Source of the DNA: Actinomycetota bacterium
Lineage (GTDB): Bacteria > Actinomycetota > Thermoleophilia > Gaiellales > F1-60-MAGs149
Direction of reading: 5' to 3'
Assembly (NCBI GenBank): GCA_026392355.1
Contig: JAPLCF010000036.1
Span: 129,054 to 193,053 of the forward strand
DNA length: 64,000 nucleotides
The position numbers and the translations under genes are program-made. This document shows positions 13,548 through 44,284 of this stretch, piece after piece. The notes under the pieces were generated by a model that was not told where the DNA came from, ran no database searches, and saw only the letters and a list, made by a program, of their open reading frames with translations. How positions within the stretch are numbered: position 1 is the stretch's first letter; every line of letters starts with the position of its first letter.

Positions 13548-15845
<2,298 letters not shown>

Positions 15846-28014: not shown

Positions 28015-28644
28015 GTGGCCAAAGACCTGCCGATCGGGAAGCTCCTCCGCGAGTGCGGTTTCGCATCCGACACCGCGCAGGCCGCAGGACGTGAGGCCCT
28101 CGACGCGGCTGGTGTGACACGTCCGGGCAAGGACCGCATCGTCGAGTGGAAGCGACCCGACGTCGTCGCGGTCCTCAAGGCACGCGTCACGCTGCTCTGC
28201 GCACCATGCCGCGAGGCCGGGCTCGGTAACGACTACCCGGAGGCGATCACGGCCGGAGCCGGCGACCGCTGCGTCGTCTGCGAGGGCAGCGCCACCCGAC
28301 GTGGTGCGCTGATTCTGACCCGCGCCTGCCAGCGTGCGCGCTTCCATCGGGTGATCTTCGTCGGCGGTAACCCCGACGTCCATCGTGAGCTGCCGCTGCT
28401 CCTGGGTAACGACCTCGACGTCCGCGTCGTCGATGGCATGACATCGCGGCCGGGGCGTGACGTCCAGCGCGAGATCGACGGCTGCGACGTTGTCGTACTG
28501 CTTGGCTCGACCGAGATCAGCCACACGGTCAGCGCCACCTGGGCGGGGCCAAAGACGGTCGCGACTCAGTCTCGCGGTATCAGTGCGTTCCTGCTCGAAG
28601 CGGCCGAGAAGATCGACGCCCGCGCCGGCCGCGCTGGACTCTGA
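28015..28644 (+). CDS. Hypothetical protein with two CxxC pairs and a DUF2325-like C-terminal domain
   Basis: CAPC and CVVC motifs followed by RVIFVGGNPD...CDVVVLLGSTEISH. I judged the antisense ORF 27997..28818 a shadow. Confidence 0.4.
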   Translation: MAKDLPIGKLLRECGFASDTAQAAGREALDAAGVTRPGKDRIVEWKRPDVVAVLKARVTLLCAPCREAGLGNDYPEAITAGAGDRCVVCEGSATRRGALILTRACQRARFHRVIFVGGNPDVHRELPLLLGNDLDVRVVDGMTSRPGRDVQREIDGCDVVVLLGSTEISHTVSATWAGPKTVATQSRGISAFLLEAAEKIDARAGRAGL

Positions 28645-28699
28645 GCCCACAGGCAGGTACCTTGACCGCGCAGTCAGGATTATCGAGGAGAGGTTCCCC

Positions 28700-30022
28700 A
28701 TGCATGACGTCATCGTGATCGGCGCCGGCTTTGCCGGTTGCTCCGCGGCCCGCGAGGTACGTCGAGCCGGCAAGACGCCACTGCTCCTCGAGGCGCGCGA
28801 CCGCATTGGCGGCCGCACGTGGACCTCGGACTGGGATGGCCAGCGGTTCGAGCGCGGCGGTAACTACTTTCACTGGTTCCAGCCCCACCTCTGGACCGAG
28901 GTCATGGCCGCCGGCGTCACGCCGCTCGCGCCGCCCACCGGCGACCCCGTGCACTGGACCGTCAATGAGCAACTCCGTAGCGGCACCCGCGCCGAGCGCG
29001 AGGCCATCAACGAGTCTGCCTGGAACAAGTACAACGCGGGCTCGTGGGAGATCCTCCCCGAGCCGCACGCACCCCTGCGCCACCCCGACCGCATCGCCCG
29101 GCTCGACGCCATGACGATCCAGGAACGGATCGACGAGCTCGACCTGACCGACGATGAGCGCGCGCTCCTGATGGTGGAGTGCGAGGGCGTGGCGAGCGGA
29201 CACCTCAACGATGCCGGCGCCCTCTCGGTGATGCGCTGGCATGCGCTGTCTGGACACACGCTGGCTGGCACGCAAGAGGCTGCAGGCGGCTACACGATCG
29301 CCGAGGGCACGCTCGCCTTCCTGCAGCCGATCCTCGACGCCGCCGCCTGCGAGTTGCGACTCGAGGCGCCGATCGAGGCCATCGAGCAGGAGGACGACCG
29401 CGTCGTCGTCACGCTGCGGTCCGGCGAGGCGCTGGCAGCCCGCGCGTGCGTCGTGACTGTGCCGCTCAACGCGCTCGGGGCGATCCGCTTCGAGCCAGGC
29501 CTGTCAGAGGTGAAGCGGTCGGGCATTGCTCTCGGACAGGCGGGCATTGGCAGCAAGGTGATGCTCAAGGTGCGCACGTCCGGCGGCCCGGTCTCGGGCA
29601 TGCACCCGAATCACCCCTTCGGCTTCCTCGGCACGATCTTCGATCTGCCCGGCGACGAGCAGATCCTTGTGTGCTTCGGCCACGACGGTGACGAGATCGT
29701 CGATGGCGACCTCGCCTGGGCGCAGCGCGAGCTCGACCGGGCGATCCCCGGCTGCGAGGTGATCGGCATGAATTACCACGACTGGAAGTCCGATGAGTTC
29801 TCGCAGGGCACCTGGGGCGTGCACCGCCCAGGCTGGTACACGACCCACCACGCCGAGATGCAGCGCCCAGAGGGTCGCGTGATCCTCTCCAACTCCGACG
29901 CTGGGCAGGCTTCGTCGATGGGGCGATCGAGTCGGGCACGCACGGTGGCCGCTGGGCGGCCGCGCAGATGTAGTCCGAACCTTTTCCAGACCATAACCAG
30001 ACCAATTTGCAATTTGGTCTGA
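28700..30022 (+). CDS. Flavin-containing amine oxidase (MAO/putrescine oxidase-like) with an apparent C-terminal frameshift
   Basis: MHDVIVIGAGFAGCSAAREV...LEARDRIGGR N-terminus. After ...ILSNSD (about 29899) the conserved C-terminus WAGFVDGAIESGTHGGRWAAAQM* is encoded in another frame, ending at 29973. Confidence 0.7.
   Translation: MHDVIVIGAGFAGCSAAREVRRAGKTPLLLEARDRIGGRTWTSDWDGQRFERGGNYFHWFQPHLWTEVMAAGVTPLAPPTGDPVHWTVNEQLRSGTRAEREAINESAWNKYNAGSWEILPEPHAPLRHPDRIARLDAMTIQERIDELDLTDDERALLMVECEGVASGHLNDAGALSVMRWHALSGHTLAGTQEAAGGYTIAEGTLAFLQPILDAAACELRLEAPIEAIEQEDDRVVVTLRSGEALAARACVVTVPLNALGAIRFEPGLSEVKRSGIALGQAGIGSKVMLKVRTSGGPVSGMHPNHPFGFLGTIFDLPGDEQILVCFGHDGDEIVDGDLAWAQRELDRAIPGCEVIGMNYHDWKSDEFSQGTWGVHRPGWYTTHHAEMQRPEGRVILSNSDAGQASSMGRSSRARTVAAGRPRRCSPNLFQTITRPICNLV
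29986..30021. promoter_or_regulatory. Candidate HutC/GntR operator array: CCAGACCA-taa-CCAGACCA plus a 24-bp near-palindrome CAGACCAAtTTGCAAtTTGGTCTG
   Basis: AT-rich patch 40-75 nt upstream of the first BMC-operon gene. The palindrome pairs at 11 of 12 positions. The half-site resembles DasR/HutC-type TGGTCT/AGACCA boxes. Confidence 0.5.
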
Positions 30023-30061
30023 TATTCGGTACCTTCCGGTCCGTACCCTCGGAAGGCATCG

Positions 30062-31354
30062 ATGTACGACTACGGATTCTTCTCGTACGACTCGAAGGCG
30101 GACATGCTGGAGCGCTCCCGCGCGTTCTGGAATCCCGACAAGACCGACTTCTGGCAGGACGCCGGCATCGACCTCGTGATCGATCGCCGCGAGGGCTACT
30201 ACCTCTGGGACATGGCTGGCCGCCGCCTGATCGACGTGCACCTCAACGGCGGCACGTACAACCTCGGCCACCGCAACCCCGAGCTAATCGCCACGCTCGA
30301 GCAGGCCATGCAGCACTTCGACATGGGCAACCATCACTTCCCGTCGCTCGCGCGCACCGCACTGGCCGAGGCGCTCGTCAAGACGTGCGCCCCGAACATG
30401 CGCCGCGTGATCTACGGCGCCGCGGGCGGCGAGGCGATCGACATCGCGATCAAGACGGCGCGTCACACCAAGCAGCGTCGCAAGATCGTCTCGCTGATCA
30501 AGGCGTACCACGGCCACACCGGCCTCGCCGTCGGCACGGGTGACGACCGCTTCTCGAAGCTCTTCCTCGCAGACCACCCCGAGGAGTTCATCAACGTCCC
30601 GTTCAACGATCTCAACGCGATGGAAGACGCGCTCAAGGGCCGCGACGTCGCCGGCGTGTTGATCGAGTCGATTCCCGCGACGTACGGCTTCCCACTCCCC
30701 GAGCCCGGCTACCTCCAGGGCGTCAAGCGCCTCTGCGAGCAGTACGACACGCTCTACATCGCCGACGAAGTGCAGACCGGCCTGATGCGCACGGGCGAGA
30801 TGTGGTGCATCTCGAAGTCGGGCGTCGAGCCGGACATCATGGTCATCGGCAAGGGCATCTCCGGCGGCATGTACCCGCTCTCGTGCGTCGTCGTCTCCGA
30901 GGAGTGCTCGGCCTGGCTCAAGGAGGACGGCTTCGGCCACATCACCACGGTCGGCGGTTCGGAACTCGGCTGCATCGTCGGGATGAAGGTCCTCGAGATC
31001 TGCGGCCGGCCCGAGGTGCGCTCGATGGTGCACTACATGGCCGAGCGCTTCCAGCAGGGCCTGCGCCAGATCCAGGAGATCTACCCCGACTGGTTCGTCG
31101 GCATCCGCCAGGACGGCGTCGTGATTGGCCTCGAGTTCAACCATCCCACCGGCGCGAAGATCGTGATGAAGCATCTTTACGCGCACGGCATCTGGGCGAT
31201 CTTCTCCACGCTCGATCCGCGCGTCCTGCAGTACAAGCCCGGCATCCTGCTGAGCCCCGAGCTGGTCGACGAGATCCTCGACCGCACGGAGATCGCCATT
31301 GGCAAGGCCTACGCCGAGTGGAAGTCCATGTCGCGCCAGGCGGTGACGGCATGA
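30062..31354 (+). CDS. Class-III aminotransferase-fold PLP enzyme (candidate amino-alcohol O-phosphate phospho-lyase of the BMC pathway)
   Basis: 430 aa with DEVQTGLMRTG and the VIGKGISGG PLP-lysine region. First gene of the BMC operon, ATGA-coupled to the aldehyde dehydrogenase. Confidence 0.8.
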   Translation: MYDYGFFSYDSKADMLERSRAFWNPDKTDFWQDAGIDLVIDRREGYYLWDMAGRRLIDVHLNGGTYNLGHRNPELIATLEQAMQHFDMGNHHFPSLARTALAEALVKTCAPNMRRVIYGAAGGEAIDIAIKTARHTKQRRKIVSLIKAYHGHTGLAVGTGDDRFSKLFLADHPEEFINVPFNDLNAMEDALKGRDVAGVLIESIPATYGFPLPEPGYLQGVKRLCEQYDTLYIADEVQTGLMRTGEMWCISKSGVEPDIMVIGKGISGGMYPLSCVVVSEECSAWLKEDGFGHITTVGGSELGCIVGMKVLEICGRPEVRSMVHYMAERFQQGLRQIQEIYPDWFVGIRQDGVVIGLEFNHPTGAKIVMKHLYAHGIWAIFSTLDPRVLQYKPGILLSPELVDEILDRTEIAIGKAYAEWKSMSRQAVTA

Positions 31355-32877
31355 GCATGATCGAGCTGGAGCGCCGCGATCCTCCCGGGGCCGCCCGCGC
31401 CGCGATGATGCTGCAGCGCGCCCACTGGGCCGCCGAGACCTTCGCGCGCTATGACCGCACCCGCGTCGTGCGCATCCTTGACGCCGTCGCCGAGGCCGCC
31501 GAGGCCCACGCCGAGCGCTATGCCGAGGAGGCCGTTGCCGAGACCGGCATGGGCGTCGTCGAGCACAAGGTCCTTAAGAACCGCATGCTCTCACGCGGCC
31601 TCTGGGACCACTATCGCGATCACGATTTCGTGAGCCCGCGCATCGACCACGACGCCAAGATCCTCGAGCTGCCCCGCCCCGCCGGCGTGATCTTCGCGCT
31701 CACGCCCGTCACGAACCCCGTCGCCACCGTGTACTTCAAGGTGATGCTCGCCCTGATGACGCGCAACGCGATCGTCGTGAGCCCGCATCCCGGTGCCAAG
31801 CACGTCTGCGCCGACGCCGTCCGCATGCTGTCCGACGCCGCCGTCCGCGCCGGCGCCCCTGACGGCTGCATCCAGATTGTCGAAGAGCCCTCGATCCCGC
31901 TGATCGAGGCGCTGATGACCGACCCGACGACCGACGTCGTCGTGGCGACCGGCGGTGGCGCCGTCGTGCGCGCCGCGTATCGCTCGGGCAATCCCGCCCT
32001 CGGCGTGGGTCCTGGCAACGTGCCCTCGTTCGTCGACGCCACGGCCGACATCGCTGCGGCCGCGCGGCACATCATCGACTCCAAGTCGTTCGACCACTCC
32101 ATCCTCTGCACCAACGAGTCGGTCGTGATCGTCGAAGAGGAGGTCGCCGACCAGCTCGAGCGCGAGCTGCGCAAGCACGGCGGCCACATCGTCGACGCCA
32201 GCGAGGTTGAGCAGGTGCGCGAGCACCTCTTCCCCAACGGCCACATGCGCCTCGACCTGATCGGCAAGAGCGCACTCGAGCTGGCCGAGGCCGCGCAGCT
32301 GAAGGTGCCCGCGAACACGCGCGTGCTGATCGCACCGTTCTCGCTCGTCGTCCCCGAGGAGCCGCTGGCGCACGAGAAGCTGTTCCCGCTGCTGGGCCTC
32401 GTCCGCGTGCCCAATACGCGCGCCGGCATCTCGGCCGCCCAGGCGATGCTGCGCATCACCGGCGCCGGCCACTCGGCCTCGATCCACTCGCGCAGCGCAC
32501 GGACGATCATGGCCTACGGCGCCGCGGTCAAGGTCCTGCGCGTGTCGGTCAACGTCGGCAACAGCCTCGGCTCGGCCGGCGCACTGACGAACCTCTCGCC
32601 CACGATGACGATCGGCACCGGCTTCTACGGCCGCTCGTCGGTTGGCGAGAACCTCGAGCCGCGCCACCTGATCAACCTGATGCGCGTCGCGTACAACGCC
32701 GACGCCTCCGTGCCCTTCGACGACTTCACCGGCCTTGAGCCGTGGGTCCTCGAGGCGGCCGCCACACCCATCGCCGCGCCCGTCGAGCACGCGCCGGCCG
32801 CACCCGAAACCGACCTGCTGCGCGAGGAGATCCGCAAGGTGATCCTCGAGGAGCTCAAGGAGCTGACCCGTCAGTGA
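31351..32877 (+). CDS. CoA-acylating aldehyde dehydrogenase (PduP/EutE-like) with C-terminal encapsulation-peptide-like helix
   Basis: Start is at Met184 of track ORF 30802..32877. The catalytic region has FDHSILCTNE. The tail is an Ala/Pro linker plus the amphipathic DLLREEIRKVILEELKELTRQ. Confidence 0.85.
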   Translation: MSMIELERRDPPGAARAAMMLQRAHWAAETFARYDRTRVVRILDAVAEAAEAHAERYAEEAVAETGMGVVEHKVLKNRMLSRGLWDHYRDHDFVSPRIDHDAKILELPRPAGVIFALTPVTNPVATVYFKVMLALMTRNAIVVSPHPGAKHVCADAVRMLSDAAVRAGAPDGCIQIVEEPSIPLIEALMTDPTTDVVVATGGGAVVRAAYRSGNPALGVGPGNVPSFVDATADIAAAARHIIDSKSFDHSILCTNESVVIVEEEVADQLERELRKHGGHIVDASEVEQVREHLFPNGHMRLDLIGKSALELAEAAQLKVPANTRVLIAPFSLVVPEEPLAHEKLFPLLGLVRVPNTRAGISAAQAMLRITGAGHSASIHSRSARTIMAYGAAVKVLRVSVNVGNSLGSAGALTNLSPTMTIGTGFYGRSSVGENLEPRHLINLMRVAYNADASVPFDDFTGLEPWVLEAAATPIAAPVEHAPAAPETDLLREEIRKVILEELKELTRQ

Positions 32878-33494
32878 GTAACGCAACCGCCGTCGAGCTC
32901 CGCTCCTGCATCTACCTCGATCAGCTGCAGCCGCAGACCATGTGTTACCTCGGCTCCTGGATCAAGGGCCGCCTGCCGCGCGCCGGCATGGCCGCCCAGA
33001 TCATCGAGGTCGCACCGGGTCTCGACATCGAGGCACTCACCGACGTCGCGCTCAAGCACGACCGCGTCGAGGCCGGCATCCTGTTCGTCGAGCGCACCTT
33101 CGGCTACCTCGAGATGCACTCGCTCTCGCCCGCCGCCGTCAAGTCGGCCACCAGCGCCGTGCTCGACGCGCTCGACCTGTCGGGTCGCGACTCGATCAAG
33201 CCGAAGATCCTGGCCAAGAAGGTCATCTCGCGCGTCGACGGCCAGCACGCCTTCCTGATCAACCGCAACAAGATCGGCTCGATGCTCCTGCCGGGTGAGT
33301 CGCTGTTCGTACTCGAATGCCAGCCCGCCTCGTACGCGATCCTCGCGACGAACGAGGCCGAGAAGGCCGCCGACATCAAGGTGATCGACTACCGCATGAT
33401 CGGCGCCACCGGCCGCGTCTACCTGTCCGGCGAGGAGGCCAACGTCCGCGCTGCGGGCGAGGCCGCCGTCGCAGCGCTGGAGGCAATCGCGTGA
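32874..33494 (+). CDS. BMC shell protein, tandem BMC-domain (BMC-T-like), paralog 1
   Basis: 206 aa with a GTGA-coupled start. Two BMC-like halves are visible (AAQIIEVAPGLDIEALTDVALK... and SLFVLECQPASYAILATNEAEKAADIKVI...GRVYLSGEEANVRAAGEAA). Confidence 0.7.
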   Translation: MSNATAVELRSCIYLDQLQPQTMCYLGSWIKGRLPRAGMAAQIIEVAPGLDIEALTDVALKHDRVEAGILFVERTFGYLEMHSLSPAAVKSATSAVLDALDLSGRDSIKPKILAKKVISRVDGQHAFLINRNKIGSMLLPGESLFVLECQPASYAILATNEAEKAADIKVIDYRMIGATGRVYLSGEEANVRAAGEAAVAALEAIA

Positions 33495-34060
33495 GCGAAG
33501 CCCCCGTCAACGAGAGCACCGAGATGCACGCGGCGCTGAAGACTGCGCTTGCCGAGCTCCTGCCCGACATGCTGCGCGAGCATCAGGCGGCTCCGGTCGC
33601 CCAGGTGCCTGCACCGCCCGTCGCGCAGACGCTGCGCCCGAGCACCTGGCACCCGTCGCAGCAGGCGCCCGATCCGGCGGGCAACGCCGCTCCCGCCCCC
33701 GCTGCCGCACCGGCCGCCGGGGGCGCCGTCGAGCAGGTGCGTCTCAAGGACGACCGCGACCTCGACACGTTCGTGCGCTCGCTGGCACGCCGCCTCGAGC
33801 ACCCGGCCGAGCGCGCCGCGATTGCCGCGGGCCACATCCGCTTCACCATGACGGGCCACGGCACACCTGCCGCCGCGCCTGCACCCGCCACGAGCGGTAC
33901 CGAGCGCATCGAGCGCGGTGCCGTCACCGAGCGCATCATCGAGCGCGCCGCCGAAAACGGTGGCGTCCTCGTGCTCGGCCCCAAGGCCGTGCTCACGCCG
34001 ATGGGCAAAGATCGCGCCCGCGCACTCGGCGTCCAGATCCAGAGGGAGGCAGCATGCTGA
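33491..34060 (+). CDS. BMC-associated hypothetical protein (N-terminal amphipathic helix, Pro/Ala linker, small C-terminal domain)
   Basis: 189 aa. GTGA-coupled upstream, and its end overlaps the BMC-P start by 7 nt. Contains MHAALKTALAELLPDMLRE, then a P/A-rich stretch, then ...GAVTERIIERAAENGGVLVLGPKAVLTPMGKDRARALGVQI. Confidence 0.6.
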   Translation: MSEAPVNESTEMHAALKTALAELLPDMLREHQAAPVAQVPAPPVAQTLRPSTWHPSQQAPDPAGNAAPAPAAAPAAGGAVEQVRLKDDRDLDTFVRSLARRLEHPAERAAIAAGHIRFTMTGHGTPAAAPAPATSGTERIERGAVTERIIERAAENGGVLVLGPKAVLTPMGKDRARALGVQIQREAAC

Positions 34061-34293
34061 AAGGCACCGTGACCGGATCCGTGTGGTCGACCAAGCGCGT
34101 CGACGATATGCCACACGGAGCGTTTCTTGAGGTAGAGCTCGAAGGCGGCGCCTCGATCGTCGCGTTCGACATTCTCGGCTCGGGGGTCGGCGAGCGGGTC
34201 CTCGTCGCCACCGGCTCTGTCGCCGCCGCGCGGTTTGCGCCGGCCCACCCGCCGATCGATGCACTGATCGTCGGCCTGATCGACCAGTCCTAG
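34054..34293 (+). CDS. BMC vertex pentamer protein (BMC-P; EutN/CcmL/PduN family)
   Basis: 79 aa: MLKGTVTGSVWSTKRV...VAFDILGSGVGERVLVATGSVAA...IDALIVGLID matches the EutN/CcmL pattern. Confidence 0.85.
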   Translation: MLKGTVTGSVWSTKRVDDMPHGAFLEVELEGGASIVAFDILGSGVGERVLVATGSVAAARFAPAHPPIDALIVGLIDQS

Positions 34294-34341
34294 ACCCACA
34301 TTCATCACGCACGTCCAGTTCGAGATCCAAGGAGGGATCAC

Positions 34342-34617
34342 ATGTCTGAAGCACTCGGAATGATCGAGACCAAGGGGTACGTCGCCGCACTCGCCGCCGC
34401 GGACGCCATGGTCAAGGCCGCCAACGTGACCATCGTCGGTCGCGAGGAGGTCGGTGACGGGCTCGTCGCCGTCGTCATCCAGGGCGACGTCGGTGCCGTC
34501 AAGGCTGCCACGGAGGCCGGCTCGGAGACCGCTGCAACGGTCGGCGAGCTCGTGTCCGCGCACGTCATCCCGCGCCCGCACGCCGAGCTCGGCAAGCACT
34601 TCACGGCCGGCAAGTAA
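34342..34617 (+). CDS. BMC shell hexamer protein (BMC-H; PduA/EutM/CcmK-like)
   Basis: 91 aa: [31 protein letters not shown]...[13 protein letters not shown] is the canonical BMC domain. AAGGAGGG RBS lies upstream. Confidence 0.95.
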
Positions 34618-34627
34618 GGAGCACCCG

Positions 34628-35272
34628 ATGGCCGGACCGGATATCGAACTGCGCGTCTACCTCCCCATCCCCGAGCTGCGTCGGCAGTTCGCGGCCTACA
34701 TGGGGACGCCGACGCGCGCTCGTGGCTACCCGCCGATGGAGGGCGAGCACGCTCTCATCGTCGAGGTCGCTCCCGGTCTGGCCATCGAGCGCGTTATCGA
34801 CCTCGCGCTCAAGGCCGTGCCTGAGGTCGAGCCCGGCATCCTCTTCGTGGAGCGCCAGTTCGGCGTCCTCGAGCTGCATGCCAAGGACGCGGAGACGGTT
34901 GAGCGCGCCGGTGCGGCGATTCTCGCCGGCATCAACGCCGAGCCGTCGCATCAGCTGAAGCCCCGCATCCTCTACTCGGATGTGATCGAGGACATCACCG
35001 ATCAGCACGCGGTGATCGTCAACCGCAACCGCCAGGCCTCGATGGTCCTGCCGGGCGAGTCGCTGCTCGTCTACGAGATGGCACCCGCACTGTTCGCAGC
35101 CATGGCAGCCAACGAGGCCGAGCGCGTCGCCCCGGACGTCACGGTCGTCGATATCGCGATGATCGGTGCGACCGGTCGCATCTACATGAGCGGCAAGACC
35201 GAGAGCGTCCTCAAGGCCCGCGACGAGATCACGCGCGTACTTGAGGCCGTCGTCGGCCGCGACCACGGATAG
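34628..35272 (+). CDS. BMC shell protein, tandem BMC-domain (BMC-T-like), paralog 2
   Basis: 214 aa, colinear with the 32874..33494 product (IELRVYLP...ALIVEVAPGLAIERVIDLALK...SLLVYEMAPALFAAMAANEAERVAPDV...GRIYMSGKTESVLKARDEI). AAGGAG RBS. Confidence 0.7.
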   Translation: MAGPDIELRVYLPIPELRRQFAAYMGTPTRARGYPPMEGEHALIVEVAPGLAIERVIDLALKAVPEVEPGILFVERQFGVLELHAKDAETVERAGAAILAGINAEPSHQLKPRILYSDVIEDITDQHAVIVNRNRQASMVLPGESLLVYEMAPALFAAMAANEAERVAPDVTVVDIAMIGATGRIYMSGKTESVLKARDEITRVLEAVVGRDHG

Positions 35273-35273
35273 G

Positions 35274-35370
35274 TGCTCCGAAGGGGTCAGACCCTTTTGG
35301 AGCATCGCATCATTGCGGTCTATTTCAGCGTCGTCCGGATGCTCCAAAAGGGTCTGACCCCTTCGGAGCA
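35274..35370. repeat. MITE/REP-like palindromic element, copy A (perfect 33-bp arms, 31-nt spacer)
   Basis: TGCTCCGAAGGGGTCAGACCCTTTTGGAGCATC ... GATGCTCCAAAAGGGTCTGACCCCTTCGGAGCA. It begins 1 nt after the BMC-T2 stop codon and is related to the element at 57877..57980. Confidence 0.75.
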
Positions 35371-35371
35371 T

Positions 35372-35391
35372 CGGTCTGGTCGAACAGACCG
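35372..35391. promoter_or_regulatory. Second GGTCTG/CAGACC palindrome: CGGTCTG-gtcgaa-CAGACCG
   Basis: 7-bp perfect inverted arms 40 nt upstream of the kinase gene. It shares the half-site with the 29986..30021 array. Confidence 0.4.
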
Positions 35392-35431
35392 GATACCCAT
35401 ATACTCCTGCCCCTGAGGAGAGGTGGAGCCC

Positions 35432-36424
35432 ATGGCAGAGGTCGTGGATCAAGACGAGGTTGATCGCTTGGCGCAGGCCGCGCTTGCGCACTACGACGTG
35501 TCGCCGGGTTGCACCCTGCAGCTGATCAACCTGTCCGAGAACTGGACGTATCGCGTCGAGGATCCCGACTCTGGCACGACCTATGCCCTGCGCGTGCACC
35601 GTACGGGGTACCACACGCCCGCGGAAATCGCCTCCGAGCTGCTGTGGATCGACGCGCTCCAGCAGGATGACGTCGTCGGCACGGTTACCCCGCTGCCTGC
35701 GCGCTCCGGCGAGCGCGTGATCCAGATGGCGACGGAGACCCTGCCCGAGCGGAGCGTCGTGCTGTTCGCATGGGAGGAAGGCGCGCCGCCCGACCCCGAT
35801 GCCGACCTGATCCCGGTCTACCGCACGCTCGGCGCGATCAGCGCTGGCATGCACGAACACGCCCGCGGCTGGCAGCAGCCTGCGGCGTTTACCCGCTTCA
35901 GCTGGGACTTCGACACCGCGCTCGGCCCGCAGGGCCACTGGGGCCCGTGGCAGGACGCCGTCGGCCTCGACGACGAGAAGCGCGACCTCTTCCAGCGCAC
36001 GGTCGACGTCGTCGATCAACGCCTGCAGGCCTACGGCAAGGGGCCCGAGCGCTATGGCCTGATCCATGCCGACATGCGCCCCGCCAACGTGTTGGTGCTC
36101 GGCGACGACGTTCGGGCCATCGATTTCGACGACTGCGGCGCCGGCTGGTTCATGTACGACTTCGCGACCACGATCTCGTTCATCGAAGAGCACCCGATGG
36201 TGCCGGAGTGGCGCGCGTCGTGGCTCGAGGGCTATCGCTCGGCCGGCACGCTCAGCGCGAAGGACGAGGCCGAGCTCGACACCTTCGTGATGCTGCGCCG
36301 CATGATGCTGCTCTGCTGGGTCGGCTCGCATTACGCCCATGCCATCGAGGCGCAGGAACTCGGCGCCGATTTCACGCTCGCCACGTGTCCGCTTGCGGAG
36401 ACGTATCTCTCGCACTACGCCTGA
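35432..36424 (+). CDS. Aminoglycoside-phosphotransferase-fold kinase (candidate 1-amino-2-propanol kinase)
   Basis: Catalytic loop GLIHADMRPANVL and IDFDD metal-binding motif. ATG 35432 is preferred over GTG 35423 because of the spacing to the GAGGAG RBS. Confidence 0.8.
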   Translation: MAEVVDQDEVDRLAQAALAHYDVSPGCTLQLINLSENWTYRVEDPDSGTTYALRVHRTGYHTPAEIASELLWIDALQQDDVVGTVTPLPARSGERVIQMATETLPERSVVLFAWEEGAPPDPDADLIPVYRTLGAISAGMHEHARGWQQPAAFTRFSWDFDTALGPQGHWGPWQDAVGLDDEKRDLFQRTVDVVDQRLQAYGKGPERYGLIHADMRPANVLVLGDDVRAIDFDDCGAGWFMYDFATTISFIEEHPMVPEWRASWLEGYRSAGTLSAKDEAELDTFVMLRRMMLLCWVGSHYAHAIEAQELGADFTLATCPLAETYLSHYA

Positions 36425-36440
36425 CCAGGAGGTCACCACC

Positions 36441-37220
36441 ATGAGCAAGATGTTCAACTCCCTCGAGGGCCGCAGCGTCCTCGTCACCGGCGGCACCAAG
36501 GGCATTGGCCTCGGCATCGCCCGCGTCTTCGCCGATGCCGGCTGCAAGGTCACCGTCGCCGGTCGTGATGAGGCCACGGGCGCAGCCGCTGTCGAGTCGC
36601 TCGGCGCGAACGCGTCGTTCGTCAAGGGCGACGTCAGCCGCGCAGCCGACTGCAAGCGCATCGTCGAAGAGACCGTCGCGCTGCAGGGAGGCCTCGACGT
36701 GCTCTGCGCCAACGCCGGCATCTTCCCCGAGTGCCGCCTCGAGGAGATGACCGAGGAGGCGCTCGACCTGATGCTCGACACGAACCTCAAGGGCAACATC
36801 CTCTCCGTCGCGCATGCCATTCCCGCGCTCGCGAAGTCGGGCCACGGCCGCATCATCCTGACGTCGTCGATCACCGGTCCGTTCACGGCGATCCCCGCGC
36901 TGTCGCACTACGGCGCGTCGAAGGCCGGCCAACTGGGCTTCATGCGCGGTGCTGCGATGGAGCTCGCGCCCAAGAAGATCACGATCAACGCGGTGCTGCC
37001 GGGCAACATCCTGACCGAGGGTCTGGTTGGGCTCGGCGAGGACTACCTGCGCACGGCGGCCGAGTCGATCCCGCTGGGCAAGCTCGGCGACCTCGAGGAC
37101 ATCGGCTACGCCGCGATGTTCCTCGCCACCGACGAGGCCAAGTTCATCACCGGCCAGACGATTGTCGTCGACGGCGGCCAGACGCTGCCCGAGGCGCCGT
37201 CGGCCATGGAGGCGATCTGA
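36441..37220 (+). CDS. Short-chain dehydrogenase/reductase (candidate amino-propanol/aminoacetone dehydrogenase)
   Basis: TGGTKGIG cofactor motif, NAG, and the catalytic YGASK. AGGAGG RBS lies upstream. Confidence 0.85.
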   Translation: MSKMFNSLEGRSVLVTGGTKGIGLGIARVFADAGCKVTVAGRDEATGAAAVESLGANASFVKGDVSRAADCKRIVEETVALQGGLDVLCANAGIFPECRLEEMTEEALDLMLDTNLKGNILSVAHAIPALAKSGHGRIILTSSITGPFTAIPALSHYGASKAGQLGFMRGAAMELAPKKITINAVLPGNILTEGLVGLGEDYLRTAAESIPLGKLGDLEDIGYAAMFLATDEAKFITGQTIVVDGGQTLPEAPSAMEAI

Positions 37221-37282
37221 GCACAACCACGCCAACGGGCGATAAGGGTGCCGCCGGGCAACTCGGCCCGGCCGGCATCGGC

Positions 37283-38020
37283 GTGCGCGATCGGATCCTG
37301 AGCGAGATCGCCAGTGGTGCGCTCGCACCCGGTGAGCGCCTCGGTGGCGAGCGCGATCTCGCCGAGCACTACGGCGTCAGTCGCTCCACGCTGCGTGCCG
37401 CGCTGGGCGCACTCGAGACGATGGGCGCCGTGCGCCGACAGTCGGGCCGCACCGGTGGCACGTTCGTTGCCGCCCGCAAGGTCGAGCGCGACCTGCGCAG
37501 CATGGCCGGCCTGCCGTCGTATCTCCGACGCCAGGGCTTCTCGGCTGATGCCCGCGTGCTGTCGACCGCCACGATCGAAGCCGATGCCGAGACGGCCGCA
37601 GCGCTCGACGTTGCGGTCGGTGCGCTCGTGCTCGAGATCGTGCGCGTGCGTCTTGCCGACGGCGAGCCGATCTCCTACGAGCGCGCGCGCTTCCCCGCCG
37701 CGCGCTTCGCCGGCATGCTCGACCACGGCCTCGGCGGCTCGCTCTACGAGTTGCTGCAGAGCGAGTTCGACGTGAAGCCCGGCGAGGCAATGGAGCAGAT
37801 CGAGATCGTCGGCGCCGGCTCGGCCGAGGCGAAAGTGCTCGAGGTCAAGCGCTCCACGCCACTGGTCGCAATCATCCGCACCGCCTGGGACCGCGACGGC
37901 CGCCCGTTTGAGCACTCGCACGACCTGTTCCGCTCCGACCGCGTACGCATCGTCGTGCGCACGCCCGCCGGCGAATCGGCCGCCCGTGGCGTGGCGAGCA
38001 CGATCGAGGTCGTGGCATGA
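37283..38020 (+). CDS. GntR family regulator, HutC subfamily (UTRA effector domain)
   Basis: HTH ERDLAEHYGVSRSTLRAALGALETMGAVRRQSGRGTF-like segment followed by a UTRA-like domain. Start is GTG at Val185 of the track ORF. CTG 37217, overlapping the SDR stop, is an alternative. Confidence 0.75.
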   Translation: MRDRILSEIASGALAPGERLGGERDLAEHYGVSRSTLRAALGALETMGAVRRQSGRTGGTFVAARKVERDLRSMAGLPSYLRRQGFSADARVLSTATIEADAETAAALDVAVGALVLEIVRVRLADGEPISYERARFPAARFAGMLDHGLGGSLYELLQSEFDVKPGEAMEQIEIVGAGSAEAKVLEVKRSTPLVAIIRTAWDRDGRPFEHSHDLFRSDRVRIVVRTPAGESAARGVASTIEVVA

Positions 38021-38958
38021 CCGAGCACCGCATCTCCCGCGACCTGCCCACGCACCGTCGCTGGGACGTGGATGTCCCCCCGGTCGTGATGGCGCAACCT
38101 GGCGACGTGATCGTCGCCGAGACCGACGACTTCGCCGCGGGCCAGATCACCCGCGACTCGCCGGCCTCCGCGCTGCTCGAGGTCGACTTCGACCTGATCT
38201 ACCCGCTGGCCGGCCCGATCCACGTCGAAGGTGCCGAGCCGGGCGACGCACTGGCGATCGAGATCCTCGGCTTCGAACTGCCCGACTGGGGCTGGTCGTG
38301 CATCATCCCCGGCTTCGGCCTGCTGCCGCCCGGCGAGTTTCCCGACCCCGTCCTGCGCATCTTCGACCTGACGGACGGCGACACAACGCAGCTCTGTCCG
38401 GGCGTGCGCATTCCGATCGAGCCGTTCTGCGGCACGATGGGCGTCCCCGGCCCGGGCATGAGGGACGCGCCGATTCCGCCGCCCCATGCCGGTGGCGGCA
38501 ACGTCGATTGTCGACACCTGACCGCTGGCACCACGCTCTACCTTCCCGTCGGTGCCCCGGGCGGTCTGTTCTCGCTGGGTGATGCTCACGCTGCACAGGG
38601 CGATGGCGAGGTTGCGATCGCCGGTATCGAGTGCGCGATGACCACCCGCATTCGGGTCGATGTCGTCAAGGGCATGGATATCCCCGCGCCCCAGCTGCGC
38701 CGGCCAGCGGGCTCCCTGACACCGCGAGTCGACCACGCCGGCTGGTTCGCGACGACCGGTGTCGAGACCGATCTGATGGAGGGTGCCCGCAGTGCCGTGC
38801 GGGCGATGATCGACCATCTCGTGCGCGAGCGCGGGCTGTCGCGCGAGGACGCCTACATCCTTTGCGCGCTGGCCGGCGACCTCAAGATCACCGAGGTGGT
38901 CGATGCGCCGATGTGGATGGTCGGGTGCTTCATGCCCGACGCCGTCTTCACCGGATAG
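38017..38958 (+). CDS. Acetamidase/formamidase family (FmdA/AmdA) amidase
   Basis: 313 aa with LAGPIHVEGAEPGD...GGNVDCRHL...LFSLGDAHAAQGDGE, as in the FmdA_AmdA family. The ATG overlaps the regulator stop (ATGA). Confidence 0.8.
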   Translation: MTEHRISRDLPTHRRWDVDVPPVVMAQPGDVIVAETDDFAAGQITRDSPASALLEVDFDLIYPLAGPIHVEGAEPGDALAIEILGFELPDWGWSCIIPGFGLLPPGEFPDPVLRIFDLTDGDTTQLCPGVRIPIEPFCGTMGVPGPGMRDAPIPPPHAGGGNVDCRHLTAGTTLYLPVGAPGGLFSLGDAHAAQGDGEVAIAGIECAMTTRIRVDVVKGMDIPAPQLRRPAGSLTPRVDHAGWFATTGVETDLMEGARSAVRAMIDHLVRERGLSREDAYILCALAGDLKITEVVDAPMWMVGCFMPDAVFTG

Positions 38959-39060
38959 GCGTTCTGACAATACCCGCGGATTGAGGGTTCAAAACCGCCA
39001 CTTTTTCTGGTTCAATCCCGTCAGAGAACGTGGCATTTGCCACGGGGAGAAGGAGGATTT

Positions 39061-40593
39061 ATGACCGACCACCACGGAGTGGGTGTCGGGCGTCAGGGGA
39101 CGATCGAGACGGTCTCGATCTCCGACACGGACGCCGGCCGACTCAAGCCCGGGGCCATCGGCCTGATGGGCGTCATCTTCGTCGCCGTCACGGGAGCCGC
39201 GCCGATCTCGGCCATGCTCTTCAACGTGCCGTTCGCGACGGGCTTCGGCACCGGCTACTACACACCGGCTGCCTTTCTCTTTGCCGCCGTCGTGCTGACG
39301 ATCTTCTCGGTCGGCTACGTCGCGATGGCGAAGGAGATCAGCGCTGCTGGCGGCTTCTACTCGTTCATCTCGCACGGCCTCGGCCAGGCCCTCGGCCTCG
39401 CCACGGGCATCTGCGGTGCCGTCGCCTACGCCCTCTTCGAGGTGTCGCTGCTCGGCGGTTTCTCGTACTTCTTCTCGACGAACTTCAATTCATGGTTCGG
39501 CTGGGAGATTCCGTGGATCCTGCCCGCGGTGGTTGCCGCAGTCTTGATTGCCGTGCTCTGCTGGTTCGACGTTGAGCTGTCGGTCAAGGTGCTTGGTGTC
39601 GCGCTCATCAGCGAGATCATCATCCTCGTCATCTTCGACGTGCTGGTCTTCGGCCAGGGTGGCAGCGACACGGGCATTGCGTACGACTCGATCAACGTGT
39701 TCAAGCTGACCGATCCGGGCGTCGGCCTGGCCGCCGGCGTCGGCGTCTTCTTGGCGTTCTGGTCGTGGGTCGGCTTCGAGGCGATCCCGAACTACGCGGA
39801 GGAGTCGAAGGACCCGAAGCGCAACGTCGTACGCGCCACGATGATCTCCGTGATCGGGCTCGGCGTCGGCTACGTGATCACCGCGGTCGCGTTCGAGTCG
39901 GCCTTCCCGAAGGACCAGGTTGTCGAGGCGGCACAGGATCCGGCTGGTCCGTTCTTCGTCGCCATGGAGGCCTTCGGCACGCCCTGGCTGGCGACGATCA
40001 TGCAGATCCTGATCCTGACCGGCGCGTTCGCCTGCGCCATGGCCTTCCACAACGTCGCGATGCGGTACTTCTACGCGATGGGCCGTGAGGGCATCCTGCC
40101 CTCGAAGCTCGGCAGCACGCACCCCAAGCACAAGGTGCCGCACGTCGCCAACATCACGGCGCTCGTCGTGGCGCTCGTGATCATGCTGATCTGGGGCATC
40201 TTCTCGGGCTTCGGCTTCGGCGAGGCCTTCGACACCGCGTACGTCCGCATCTACACGATGATGGCCGTGCAGGGCGTGGTCTGGATCCTCGCGATTCAGG
40301 CGCTGTGTGCCGTCGCGATCATCGTGTGGTTCCGCAAGGACGGTCGCAAGGGCAACCCGCTCACCACGATCATCTGCCCGATTCTCGCGATCGTCGGCCA
40401 GGTGTTCGCGATCTTCCTGCTCTTCAAGAACATCGACACGCTCGCCGGCACGATCTCGTACGTGCAGGCGATCGCGCCGATCGCCGTGATCCTCGTGATC
40501 GTGGCGCTCGTCTACGCCTTCGTGCTCCGCAGCACGAACCGCGAGAAGTTCGACCGCATCGGCCGCGTCATCGACGACACGGGCGACCTGTAG
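39061..40593 (+). CDS. APC-superfamily amino acid/amine permease
   Basis: 510-aa polytopic protein. ATG at Met9 of the track ORF is preceded by AGGAGGA. Confidence 0.8.
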   Translation: MTDHHGVGVGRQGTIETVSISDTDAGRLKPGAIGLMGVIFVAVTGAAPISAMLFNVPFATGFGTGYYTPAAFLFAAVVLTIFSVGYVAMAKEISAAGGFYSFISHGLGQALGLATGICGAVAYALFEVSLLGGFSYFFSTNFNSWFGWEIPWILPAVVAAVLIAVLCWFDVELSVKVLGVALISEIIILVIFDVLVFGQGGSDTGIAYDSINVFKLTDPGVGLAAGVGVFLAFWSWVGFEAIPNYAEESKDPKRNVVRATMISVIGLGVGYVITAVAFESAFPKDQVVEAAQDPAGPFFVAMEAFGTPWLATIMQILILTGAFACAMAFHNVAMRYFYAMGREGILPSKLGSTHPKHKVPHVANITALVVALVIMLIWGIFSGFGFGEAFDTAYVRIYTMMAVQGVVWILAIQALCAVAIIVWFRKDGRKGNPLTTIICPILAIVGQVFAIFLLFKNIDTLAGTISYVQAIAPIAVILVIVALVYAFVLRSTNREKFDRIGRVIDDTGDL

Positions 40594-40644: not shown

Positions 40645-41979
40645 CTACTGCGTCTTGGCGATGGCGGCGGCCTGCCGCGCGGTCCACACCGACGTCTCCG
40701 CGTACCACGTGCCGAGGTAATCGCCTGCGAGATGGATACGCCCAAGCGGCTCCATCAGCGCGGGCTGGATGCGGCTGCGCCCGACGAACGGGTACGGGAT
40801 GCCCGGGTCGACGCGGTGCAGCAGACGCTCGACGACATGGCCCTTCAGCTCGGGCAGCGTGTCCTCGAGGTCGCGCTGGAAGAGATCGAGAATCGCCTCA
40901 TCCGAGTCGCCGACAATGCGCCGTGCGAGGTTGGCCGTGGCGTACGTCATGAAGCTCGATCCCTTCACGCGCTTGGGCATCAGGACGTTACCCATGTTGA
41001 AGAGCATCGACGTCGCGCGGTCCGGTGTCGCGATCGCGTAGATGTCGTCCCAGCGCCGGGGGCCGTCCTCATCCGTGAGGAACGCGGCGGAGATCATCGG
41101 GCCGTAGGTAATCGCGCGCAGGGCGGCATCCGTCGCGGCGGGCAGACCCTCGACGATCTCTGCGGTCACGTGCGATGGCGCGGTGACGATCGCAGCCTTG
41201 GCGCGCAGGGTTCGGCGCGTGCCGTTGTCGTCGCACTCGACCGTCACGCCGTCGGCGTCTTGTGCCACGCACGTCACGTTGACACCAAACCGGATGCGGT
41301 CGCCGTGCGGGGCAGCCAGGCCATCGATCAGCGTCTGCGGCCCACCGACAATGTTGCGGCCGAGGCCGTCCTCCTGATTCCACGCCAGGTGGAAGTAGCC
41401 GACGCCATAGCCGGCCGCGATCTGCTCGGGCTCGCCCGTGCCACGCGTGAGCGTGCAGCGAAAGAACGCGTCGACCTCGGGCTGTAGTACCCCGAGCTTC
41501 TGCGTGAACGACTGGTCGTCCATGAAGTCGAGCATGCGCTGCTGCAGCGCGGCGGGCTCCTCGCCCGGGCGCGGCTTCGCCATCTCGCCATACTCGGCGA
41601 CGAGCTTCCGCAGCTTCAGGCCGGTGCGCACGAACGACGCGCGGCCACCCAGCGAGATCGGCAGCTTGAACGGATACAGCTCGAGCGGCCCCTCGGCCAC
41701 CAGCTTGCCCTTGTACGAGACGCCCGTCAGCACGCCAGGGATGTCGCGCGGCTCGGCACCGACCTCGTGCATCAGCGTGCCCGCCGCAGAGTTGTCGCCG
41801 GCGTAGACGTGCGCGCCGAGATTGAGCCACAGATCGCCACGCGCCTCGGAGCGAATGCGGCCCCCAACGCGGTTGGCACGCTCGAGCACCACGACGTCGC
41901 GATCGCGCAGATCCCACGCGGCGCTGAGCCCGGCGATGCCGGCGCCGATCACGATGACATCGTGCTGCTCCGGCTCCAT
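40645..41979 (-). CDS. FAD-dependent amine oxidase-like oxidoreductase (paralog A)
   Basis: [18 protein letters not shown]...LERANRVGGR N-terminus, 444 aa. Colinear with the 42926..44284 product. Confidence 0.75.
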   Translation of the reverse strand: MEPEQHDVIVIGAGIAGLSAAWDLRDRDVVVLERANRVGGRIRSEARGDLWLNLGAHVYAGDNSAAGTLMHEVGAEPRDIPGVLTGVSYKGKLVAEGPLELYPFKLPISLGGRASFVRTGLKLRKLVAEYGEMAKPRPGEEPAALQQRMLDFMDDQSFTQKLGVLQPEVDAFFRCTLTRGTGEPEQIAAGYGVGYFHLAWNQEDGLGRNIVGGPQTLIDGLAAPHGDRIRFGVNVTCVAQDADGVTVECDDNGTRRTLRAKAAIVTAPSHVTAEIVEGLPAATDAALRAITYGPMISAAFLTDEDGPRRWDDIYAIATPDRATSMLFNMGNVLMPKRVKGSSFMTYATANLARRIVGDSDEAILDLFQRDLEDTLPELKGHVVERLLHRVDPGIPYPFVGRSRIQPALMEPLGRIHLAGDYLGTWYAETSVWTARQAAAIAKTQ

Positions 41980-41999: not shown

Positions 42000-42929
42000 C
42001 TACGGTCGCAGCGCGGCGGCGATCGCCGAGACGCCCGCGGGCGTGACGCCACAGCAGCCGCCGATCAACGTTGCACCGGCCGCAGTCCAGGAGCGCACGG
42101 TGTCAGCCGGGAAGCCGCCGGCGCCACCAACGGCCCACTCGCGCGCCATGCCGTCCCAGACGCGACCGTCGTTCGGATAGACGATCACGGCGAGCTCGGG
42201 TGCCGCGGTGCGACAGCGTTCGATCAGCTCGAGCACGTGCTCGGGGGCCGTGCAGTTGCAGCCGACCGCGCGGATGCCCGGGGCGTCCTTGATGCGCGCG
42301 ATGGCGTCCTCGATGGGCGAGCCGTCGGCGATGTGCCCGCCATCACGGCACTGGAACGAGACCCACGCGGCAGGACCCGCGAACTCATCCTGCAGGCGCG
42401 CAATCGCGTCGGCCTCGAGCAGGTTCGGGATCGTCTCCCACGCGAGCACGTCGGGGCCGGGGCCGAGCAGGGCGGCCACACGCGGGCGGTGGAAGCGAAC
42501 GATCTCCTCGACGCCGGCGCCCTCGTAGTCGCCCGTGTACTCCTGGCCGTTCGCCATCATCGCGCCGTACGGGCCGAGCGAGGCGGCGACGAGCGTGAAC
42601 GGCGCGTCGGGCTGCTCGCGCTCGAACGAGACGCGCGCTGCCTGCGCGAGCGTGACGCTCGTGGCGATCAGGCGATCGGCATCAGCGGCGGGAATGCCGG
42701 CCGTCGCGAAGGTCTCTTGGCTGGCCTGGTACGACGCGGTGATGGAAACGCGCGCGCCGGCCCGCAGGTAGTTGAGGTGCACGGCCTCGACCGCGGCGGG
42801 GCCATCCTCGAGCAGGCGCGCCGACCAGAGATCGCTCGACAGGTCGTAGTCCAGCGCCTCGAGCTCGGTCGCGAAGCCACCGTCGATCGTGACGGGACCC
42901 TCGTTGATCAGGTCATCGATCGCGCTCAT
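42000..42929 (-). CDS. mmuM: Homocysteine S-methyltransferase
   Basis: 309 aa with C-terminal zinc-ligand motifs VGCNC and GGCCG. Start is at Met24 of the track ORF, overlapping the upstream stop (ATGA). Confidence 0.85.
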   Translation of the reverse strand: MSAIDDLINEGPVTIDGGFATELEALDYDLSSDLWSARLLEDGPAAVEAVHLNYLRAGARVSITASYQASQETFATAGIPAADADRLIATSVTLAQAARVSFEREQPDAPFTLVAASLGPYGAMMANGQEYTGDYEGAGVEEIVRFHRPRVAALLGPGPDVLAWETIPNLLEADAIARLQDEFAGPAAWVSFQCRDGGHIADGSPIEDAIARIKDAPGIRAVGCNCTAPEHVLELIERCRTAAPELAVIVYPNDGRVWDGMAREWAVGGAGGFPADTVRSWTAAGATLIGGCCGVTPAGVSAIAAALRP

Positions 42930-44284
42930 GCGTCGAGCTGTTGCTTGACGTTCTCGGCCGACCACGCGCCGGTGCGCGCCGCGGTCTCGGCGTACCACGA
43001 CCCAAGGTAGTCGCCGGCGAGGTGAATGCGCCCGATGGGCTGCGTCAGCGCAGGCTGCAGCTTGCCGCGGCCGACGTGCGGGAACGGCAGGCCGCCGTCG
43101 ACCTTGCGCAGCACGCGCTCGACGATGCGGCCCTTGATCTCGGGGAGCACCTCCTCGAGATCGCGCTGGTAGGCGTCGAGCACCGCCTCGTCCTCCATCG
43201 CCAGCGCCTGCTTGCCCAGATCGGCGACGGCGTAGACCATGAAGCTCGTCCCCTTGCCGCGCGGCGCACCGGTGGCGCGCAGGATGTTGTCCATGTTGAA
43301 GAGCATCGTGATCGAGCGATTCGGCGTGGCGATCGCGTAGACGTCATCCCATGGCTGCGGGCCGTCCTCATCGGTGAGAAACGCGGCGCAGACGTTCGGG
43401 CCGTAGCGGAGCTCGTGCATCGCGCCGAGCATGTCGGCGGGCAGGCCCTCGACGATCTCACGCGTGACGAACGCCTGCGACGAGACGACGGCGGCCTTGG
43501 CACGAATCGATCGCTGCTCGCCCGCCTGCGTGTACTCGACTGTCACACCATCGGCGTCCTGCGCCACGCGCGTCACCTCAGCGCCAAGGCGCATGCGATC
43601 GCCATGCGGTGCCGCCAGCGCGTCCATCAGCGTCTGCGTGCCACCGACGATGTTGCGTCCCATGCCACCGGTCTTGTCCCAAACCATGTGGAAGTAGCCG
43701 ATGCCGTAGCCCGCGGCGATCTCCTCGGGCTCGCCCGTACCGCGCGTGAGCGTGCAGCGGAAGAACGCGTCGACCTCGGGGGACAGCGGTCCGAGCGCGT
43801 CCATCGCCGAGTGATCGTCCATGTAGTTGAGCATCCGCTGCTGGCGCTGCGGCAGCGTCTCGCCGGGGACGGGCGCCTGCATTTTGGCGTACGCCGCGAC
43901 GTGGCGCCGGAGCTTGAGGCCCGTGCGCATGAACTCCAGCTTGCCGCGCCACGAAATTGGCAGACGGAACGGATAGAGCTCGACGCGGCCGTTCGTCACG
44001 CGCTTGCCCTTGTACGAGATGCCGGTCAGCGTGCCGGGAATGTCCATCGCCACCGCGCCCGACTCACGTACGAGCCGGCCGACAGCAGAATCGTCGCCCG
44101 CGAACACATGCGCACCGAGGTTGAGCCAATGCTCGCCGCGCGGCACGGACATCAGCCGGCCGCCGACGCGATCAGTTGACTCGAGGACGATCGGTTCGCG
44201 ATCGCGCAGGTCCCACGCGGCCGACAATCCGGCCATGCCCGCGCCGATCACGACGACGTCGGTGATCTCCTGCGCTTCAGCCAC
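42926..44284 (-). CDS. FAD-dependent amine oxidase-like oxidoreductase (paralog B)
   Basis: [18 protein letters not shown]...[10 protein letters not shown], 452 aa. It shares long identical blocks with paralog A ([33 protein letters not shown]). Confidence 0.75.

Follow-up and report, generated by a model that had tools for sequence, protein, structure and literature searches.

The stretch of DNA analysed here, a 64-kb window (64,000 nucleotides) of contig JAPLCF010000036.1 from an Actinomycetota bacterium of the Gaiellales, contains a short repeat-rich patch at 29986–30021. The patch lies between a flavin amine oxidase gene (28457–29973, with its normal stop codon TAG at 29971–29973) and the first gene of a bacterial microcompartment (BMC) operon of the RMM/Aut type, and probably serves as the promoter-operator of that operon. 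The operon occupies 30062–40593 on the plus strand, as delimited by Pfam scans and by the conserved gene order described below. Its first gene encodes a class-III aminotransferase-fold enzyme (30062–31354), which is followed by an aldehyde dehydrogenase (ending at 32877), BMC-domain proteins (32880–33494 and following), a EutN/BMC-P protein (34054–34293), a BMC-H protein (34342–34617), an APH-type kinase (35423–36424) and an SDR protein (ending at 37220). The ninth gene (37283–38020) encodes a regulator of the HutC subfamily with a GntR winged helix-turn-helix (wHTH) and a UTRA domain, and the operon is completed by an acetamidase-like protein (38017–38958) and an amino-acid permease (39037–40593). 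All listed RMM/Aut marker genes are present in this interval, which places the operon in the RMM/Aut locus type. The same gene set makes up the RMM1/Aut locus for 1-amino-2-propanol/aminoacetone and is shared with the aminoalcohol dehydrogenase cluster of Rhodococcus erythropolis and the RMM1/RMM2 (Aut) loci of Rhodococcus/Mycobacterium (PMC4207490, PMC6620236). Unlike those loci, the operon of the window resides in a metagenome-assembled genome (MAG) of the Gaiellales/Thermoleophilia, and its regulator and permease genes stand at the operon end, not at its start or in divergent orientation.

Related loci were sought by a scan of one genome per species, which returned 54 loci (L001–L054), nearly all from Gaiellales, Thermoleophilia or Solirubrobacteraceae MAGs, together with Mycolicibacterium. 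The first-gene proteins of L001 and L002 are identical to that of the window. The gene order, including the internal regulator, is kept in about 45 of the 54 loci, and the regulator gene was found in every locus long enough to reach its position. The RMM-type locus, which takes its name from Rhodococcus and Mycobacterium, is widespread in lakes and soils among uncultured Gaiellales, Thermoleophilia and Solirubrobacteraceae, and its gene order is very stable. A search of a plasmid collection for Rhodococcus/Mycobacterium RMM loci returned only alphaproteobacterial and Pseudomonas aminotransferase homologues in unrelated context.

Read directly from the window, the patch at 29986–30021 is CCAGACCATAACCAGACCAATTTGCAATTTGGTCTG. 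It contains two copies of CCAGACCA, beginning at 29986 and 29997 and repeated with a period of 11 bp, with AGACCA at 29988 and 29999. These two ACCA-type boxes, which read TGGTCTGG on the minus strand, comprise an outer copy (29986–29993, at about −56 to −49 relative to the putative start of transcription) and an inner copy (29997–30004), which contributes the left arm of a palindrome and lies 10 nt from a box of opposite sense, TGGTCTG (30015–30021). The palindrome, CAGACCAATTTGCAATTTGGTCTG (29998–30021), equals its own reverse complement at 22 of 24 positions; an inverted-repeat search describes it as two 12-nt arms that are 92% complementary with no gap, and its dyad falls at 30009/30010. 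The outer CAGACCA (29987–29993) also pairs with TGGTCTG, with 21 nt between them. The patch has a G+C content of about 47–48%, compared with 68% for the whole window. The first-pass annotation had described direct repeats 11 bp apart, a 24-bp near-perfect palindrome and an AT-rich setting, and all of these are borne out in the sequence. The arrangement AGACCA-N8–24-TGGTCT occurs twice in the window against 0.04 expected by chance. Neither a second copy of the 24-mer, nor the AGACCA-N-TGGTCT pattern, nor the 20-nt conserved block described below was found in the window outside 29986–30032. Lone half-sites, CCAGACCA or TGGTCTG, occur elsewhere in the window at 15148, 57782, 40277, 53758 and 61352, of which those at 40277 and 53758 fall within coding sequence. 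Additionally, the heptamer CAATTTG is repeated in tandem with a 7-nt period at 30003–30016, across the palindrome centre and the −35 hexamer.

The upstream regions of the first gene were anchored on the common word TTCGGTA, which gave 49 distinct sequences. Their consensus reads atTTGc..TTTGGTCTg.TATTcGGTACggT, and the block TTG(nnn)-TTTGGTCTG-n-TATTCGG-TAnnnT is almost invariant among them. Information content is near maximal over this block and near zero in the flanks, which are unalignable, and the first-gene proteins themselves are just 77–88% identical between groups. The earlier proposal that the patch belongs to the control region of the operon is strongly supported by this near-invariance of the TGGTCTG block and by the promoter anatomy, and the motif is indeed present upstream of orthologous BMC operons, including those of Mycolicibacterium.

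The conserved block reads as a promoter of the sigma-A (housekeeping-sigma) type. TAnnnT stands at a fixed position in 49 of 49 loci (TACGGT, TACGTT, TACCTT and others), and TTGnnn stands exactly 17 nt upstream of it in 47 of 49, as a perfect TTGACA in six; these hexamers, their fixed position and a spacing within 16–18 nt are those of a housekeeping-sigma promoter. In the window, the putative −35 hexamer is TTGCAA (30007–30012) and the putative −10 hexamer is TACCTT (30030–30035), both on the plus strand. The 17-nt spacer between them (30013–30029) holds the TGGTCTG box, at about −27 to −21, followed by the segment (A)TATTCGG (30022–30029), which has high information content in the 49 loci and may be part of the operator or of an extended −10 region. 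Transcription would start near 30042, and a likely ribosome-binding site, GGAAGG (30051–30056), lies 5 nt ahead of the ATG at 30062. The centre of the palindrome coincides with the −35 hexamer, which leaves TGGTCTG inside the −35/−10 spacer. Promoter spacers are normally not conserved in sequence, and the near-invariance of this one therefore points to a bound protein.

Most soil Gaiellales loci carry, at equivalent sites, a divergent gene for a DAO-family FAD oxidoreductase, exemplified by L040 (8739–9944, minus strand). This gene uses the same control region of 95–100 bp and is probably co-regulated with the operon; its −10-like GGTACGT mirrors that of the operon. The GGTAC that overlaps the −10 hexamer is found again at the divergent promoter and could belong to an extended −10. 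As a separate observation, the −10 region at 30026–30038 (TCGGTACCTTCCG) and the segment with the ribosome-binding site and start codon at 30050–30062 (CGGAAGGCATCGA) form a 13-nt inverted repeat with 85% complementarity, which is confined to close relatives of the window. Its pairing would hide the ribosome-binding site if the transcript began further upstream.

The layout of the boxes differs between lineages. At the anchored spacer position, TGGT is found in 38 of 48 loci, and CGGT, TGGA or TGGC in most of the others. Most of the 49 loci have ACCA-type boxes, (A/G/T)(G/T/A)ACCA(A/T)T, upstream of the −35 hexamer at a distance of 19–21 nt from TGGT. The inner AGACC(A/G) at 10 nt, which is the source of the 24-bp palindrome, is found only in groups A–C, the relatives of the window, and the 11-bp direct repeat of CCAGACCA is shared by the window with group A alone. 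In group B, three AGACC boxes are spaced differently (10 and 22), and most lineages carry just one box upstream. The operator array as first proposed therefore stands for its right-hand TGGTCTG box, which is near-universal, and not for its direct repeat and palindrome, which are local to close relatives. What is shared more broadly is the polarity of the boxes about the −35 hexamer: left of it there are 73 ACCA and 20 TGGT, right of it 2 ACCA and 58 TGGT. Depending on lineage, the GG steps of paired boxes are 14 bp (N10) or 23–25 bp (N19–21) apart. We also considered that each box might be the strong half of a canonical 12-mer, or that the boxes might be in helical phase; neither idea gave a consistent register, with GG steps of 14, 23 or 25 bp in different lineages.

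The boxes are concentrated at this one position. TTGGTCT/AGACCAA has 87 matches in 807 kb of loci, 40 of them in the 200 bp that precede the first gene; codons for the peptide GMIETKG in BMC-H account for most of the others. No further operator within the operon, such as one ahead of the regulator gene, emerged from a search of all loci: the recurrent AGACCAA at about +4300 represents these GMIETKG codons. Two group C loci, L010 and L011, carry a second TTGGTCTGAT-TCGGTGA module about 60–35 nt upstream of the −35 hexamer that resembles the spacer box with the −10 region and may represent a duplicate or a remnant of a promoter-operator.

The comparison with Mycolicibacterium covered five loci, namely L043 and four fetched via regulator homologues (L056–L059). 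All five contain TTGACA-nAAATGGT(C/T), which sets a TGGT box right after the −35 hexamer. In L057 and L058, the sequence GACCA-TTGACATAAA-TGGTC provides ACCA-N10-TGGT around the −35 hexamer, the exact layout of the window. The everted order is also seen in an AT-rich actinobacterial MAG (L041), with two boxes each of ACCA and TGGT. The block TATATTGGCACTACCAAT is also invariant in the five Mycolicibacterium loci, about 27–30 bp upstream of the −35 hexamer (L043, about 9875–9900; L056–L059, intergenic). This block holds a palindrome of canonical orientation, TTGGCA-C-TACCAA, and upstream of it L043 and L056 carry TGG(C/T)CTAGACCA, a near-perfect site of the dre type discussed below. Furthermore, the clusters of L057 (6813–10777) and L059 (6837–10756) keep the aminotransferase-fold enzyme, APH kinase, SDR and GntR genes and have no aldehyde dehydrogenase and no shell genes, and are thus a microcompartment-free version of the pathway. 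They adjoin divergent permease and diol dehydratase genes, and their conserved promoter boxes are the same.

The boxes share their core with the operators of known HutC-type regulators. The dre sites of DasR and NagR consist of TGGTCT abutting AGACCA, with a GT-N4-AC core, in the palindrome GTGGTCTAGACCAC (PMC4333415, PMC4494728), and HutC operators are typically GT-N4-AC palindromes (NyGTMTAKACNy), the exceptions given being direct repeats (NagQ, FarR) and SdhR (PMC4494728). The hexamer TGGTCT/AGACCA of the window is identical to that of dre, and 30015–30021 is a dre-type half-site with the TGGT core. A GT-N4-AC palindrome was not found in 29940–30062, and the inverted arrangement typical of dre is not present there. 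The likeness to DasR sites seen in the first-pass annotation accordingly extends to the hexamer and stops at the arrangement, since the halves of the window are everted and 10 or 19–21 nt apart (21 nt for the outer box) with the −35 hexamer in the gap, whereas those of dre abut. The placement is again similar: the site overlaps the promoter, and the regulator gene lies inside the regulated operon, as nagR does in nagA-nagB-nagR (PMC4333415).

An array of TGGT-core boxes in place of a single compact palindrome also resembles the sites of NagQ (TGGTATT direct repeats), NanR (TGGTATAW) and FarR, and the two CCAGACCA boxes of the window form a direct repeat with an 11-bp period. Unlike in those systems, the direct-repeat pair is kept only in close relatives of the window. 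Main sites of the GntR family often have further half-sites nearby, termed "additional half-site boxes" (Suvorova et al. 2015), and some HutC members use non-palindromic repeats (PMC4494728). The family-wide everted pair around the −35 hexamer is absent from the HutC arrangements listed in PMC4494728. In the searchable literature, we found no described operator for the Rhodococcus/Mycobacterium RMM regulator and no described RMM/Aut promoter. The sole prediction, ACCGTCTACATCGT for MSMEG_0268 (PMC2018728), is conjectural and unrelated to the boxes of the window.

A HutC-type regulator encoded at 37283–38020 had been named in the first-pass annotation, and Pfam confirms it, with matches to GntR (E=1.3e-14) and UTRA (E=1e-37). 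Among solved structures it is closest to NagR/YvoA and DasR (E about 1e-27), with which it shares the wHTH and UTRA architecture. Structures of NagR with DNA show that Arg38 and Arg48 read G-5 and G-4, and the wing residue Gly69 reads G-7, of GTGG in the dre palindrome (PMC4333415). These residues align to R24, R34 and G55 of the window regulator, which are invariant in 30–31 orthologues; the locus thus provides a candidate cognate GntR wHTH + UTRA regulator with DNA-reading residues equivalent to those of NagR. Unlike in DasR and NagR, the wing carries a 2-residue insertion (GRTGGTF vs KGRGTF), which is common to all orthologues. The phosphate ligands of NagR (Arg133, Arg135, Ser165 and Tyr167), as well as Glu145, are conserved in the regulator and therefore hint at a phosphorylated effector, for example 1-amino-2-propanol O-phosphate, the expected product of the APH-type kinase of the operon. 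The expected effector is thus an amino alcohol or its phosphate from another pathway, in place of the glucosamine 6-phosphate or N-acetylglucosamine 6-phosphate of DasR and NagR. The SDR gene of the homologous Rhodococcus cluster is inducible by amino-2-propanol through its GntR regulator, according to the accounts given of that work (Urano 2011, cited in PMC4207490, PMC6620236). The window regulator is 245 residues long, starts about 14 residues later than NagR in the alignment and has a short first helix, and many orthologues have 257–266 residues. No canonical start codon was found between the stop of the SDR gene (37220) and the GTG at 37283.

Taken together, these data make it probable that the patch is the promoter-operator of the RMM/Aut microcompartment operon, and that its boxes are bound by the operon's own GntR/HutC regulator acting as a repressor. 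Several observations weigh against this assignment. A simple promoter and terminator scan of 29700–30300 with the strict E. coli consensus found no promoter, because the hexamers match that consensus weakly, and the promoter was recognised through cross-species conservation alone. The palindrome is not significant by itself, because Markov-1 sequence with the dinucleotide make-up of the window is expected to contain, per 64 kb, about 0.9 palindromes of 24 bp with 11 or more of 12 pairs (one was observed). Four Solirubrobacteraceae loci lack the spacer TGGTCTG box despite a nearly identical DNA-binding domain of the regulator. Both DNA-reading arginines are common across the GntR family and carry little information on specificity. 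Finally, a single dimer bound in the manner of NagR cannot span a pair of boxes, because the halves are everted with GG steps 14 or 23–25 bp apart in the window and its relatives, compared with 9 bp in the NagR complex.

The expected number of palindromes would also suit the explanation that the repeats are a chance, functionless feature of an AT-rich intergenic spacer. The repeats are counted as real because of their location and their conservation in orthologous loci: the TGGTCTG box and its neighbours are near-invariant in 49 loci in which the proteins of the first gene have diverged and the flanks no longer align, which contradicts a chance origin and leaves it hardly credible. Formation of a plus-strand RNA hairpin by the palindrome, as a terminator of the amine oxidase gene or an element of the 5′ untranslated region of the operon, is very improbable. 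The predicted hairpin has a stem of 8 bp and a loop of 8 nt, shuffled sequence folds less well than the 88-nt region (z = −3.5), and the arms pair at their position 7 as A:T, G:T or G:C, never as A:C; yet this A/G variation equally fits a degenerate purine in a protein half-site. The scan of 29700–30300 gave no terminator, the stem is AT-rich and followed by ATATTCGG with no T-run, and Rfam has no match at E≤1 in 29800–30200. In most lineages the left arm is missing or 19–21 nt off while the right arm is fixed, and the conserved −35/−10 spacing puts both arms upstream of the inferred start. A terminator would moreover have nothing to terminate in most loci, as the upstream gene is divergent there.

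Proteins other than the GntR regulator, such as a global nitrogen or carbon regulator, could bind the boxes of the promoter, or RNA polymerase itself could read them. We regard this as unlikely, though it draws on the best-supported part of the analysis, namely the promoter anatomy. The box layout is non-canonical for HutC proteins (PMC4494728, PMC4333415), the Solirubrobacteraceae loci retain the DNA-binding domain of the regulator without the spacer box, and the presence of GGTAC by the −10 hexamer at the divergent DAO promoter too suggests a promoter feature. Against it, half-sites of the GntR family generically have a TGGT/ACCA core, the boxes are confined to this operon in the 807 kb of loci and the 64-kb window, the regulator accompanies the operon in every lineage, and the spacer is conserved in a way that promoter spacers normally are not. 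As judged by eye, the conserved block contains no GlnR-type (gTnAc-n6-GaAAc) or AmtR-type box. It is also improbable that the regulator binds the boxes as an activator or dual regulator. The upstream ACCA boxes at about −38 to −56 occupy common activator positions and the −35 hexamer is weak relative to consensus in many loci (for example TTGCAA or TTGCTT), but the invariant box lies between −35 and −10, with the dyad at about −32, where binding usually keeps polymerase out. HutC-family members such as NagR and DasR act as repressors until their effector relieves them (PMC4333415), and the Rhodococcus cluster is induced by amino-2-propanol via GntR, as summarised in PMC4207490.

Under the favoured assignment of promoter and repressor-bound operator, a housekeeping-sigma-type promoter with its start near 30042 would drive the operon, and its −35 hexamer would be surrounded by TGGT/ACCA-core boxes, two upstream and the invariant TGGTCTG in the spacer. 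The HutC-type GntR regulator would most likely bind these boxes via its two conserved arginines reading the GG step, block access of RNA polymerase to the −35 hexamer and the spacer, and, being encoded within the operon, also limit its own synthesis. A pathway metabolite would then release the regulator, with 1-amino-2-propanol or its O-phosphate as candidates. In soil Gaiellales loci with the divergent DAO gene, the shared control region would serve both promoters. As to geometry, we infer either separate dimers, each on one strong box, or DNA-binding domains in another arrangement. More tentatively, and less likely than not in our view, the orthologous HutC regulators with the wing insertion may recognise the everted TGGT pair (ACCA-N10 or N19–21-TGGT) that brackets the −35 hexamer. 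Such recognition would be geometrically incompatible with the NagR/DasR complex and would need splayed DNA-binding domains or two dimers clamping the −35 hexamer.

The element is probably of a known kind, a local GntR/HutC operator on the promoter of its own operon, with the box layout as its unusual part. Should a HutC dimer indeed read the everted layout, the range of binding geometries known for a very large family of regulators would broaden, and a new GntR/HutC operator architecture, extending from Gaiellales to Mycolicibacterium, would come together with the first defined RMM/Aut control element; otherwise, the site would be a routine local repressor site. Regulation of RMM/Aut is otherwise known from one Rhodococcus induction study, as far as the citing papers relate it (Urano 2011, cited in PMC4207490, PMC6620236). 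The present analysis supplies a defined, phylogenetically footprinted promoter and box set for the RMM/Aut operon, which makes the question of regulator, operator and effector directly testable and offers a compact inducible promoter for actinobacterial engineering.

The amine oxidase gene on the other side of the patch shows features of its own. Compared with L001, L002, L003, L045 and L053, the window copy has a 10-bp deletion near 29898, between short TGGGC repeats. The deletion shifts the frame 25 codons ahead of the normal stop, and the open frame crosses the operator to a TGA at 30020–30022; the window copy is either a pseudogene or affected by an assembly error. Tandem pairs of amine oxidase paralogues, about 62–66% identical, occur in L001 (69–2648), L045 (2243–4817) and L053 (1408–3981), and the window, L002 and L004 have one copy. 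A chimera of two tandem paralogues was considered for the window gene and ruled out by its colinear alignment with the single copies of L002 and L004. Two further amine oxidase genes lie beyond the operon in the window, at 40645–41979 and 42926–44284, both on the minus strand.

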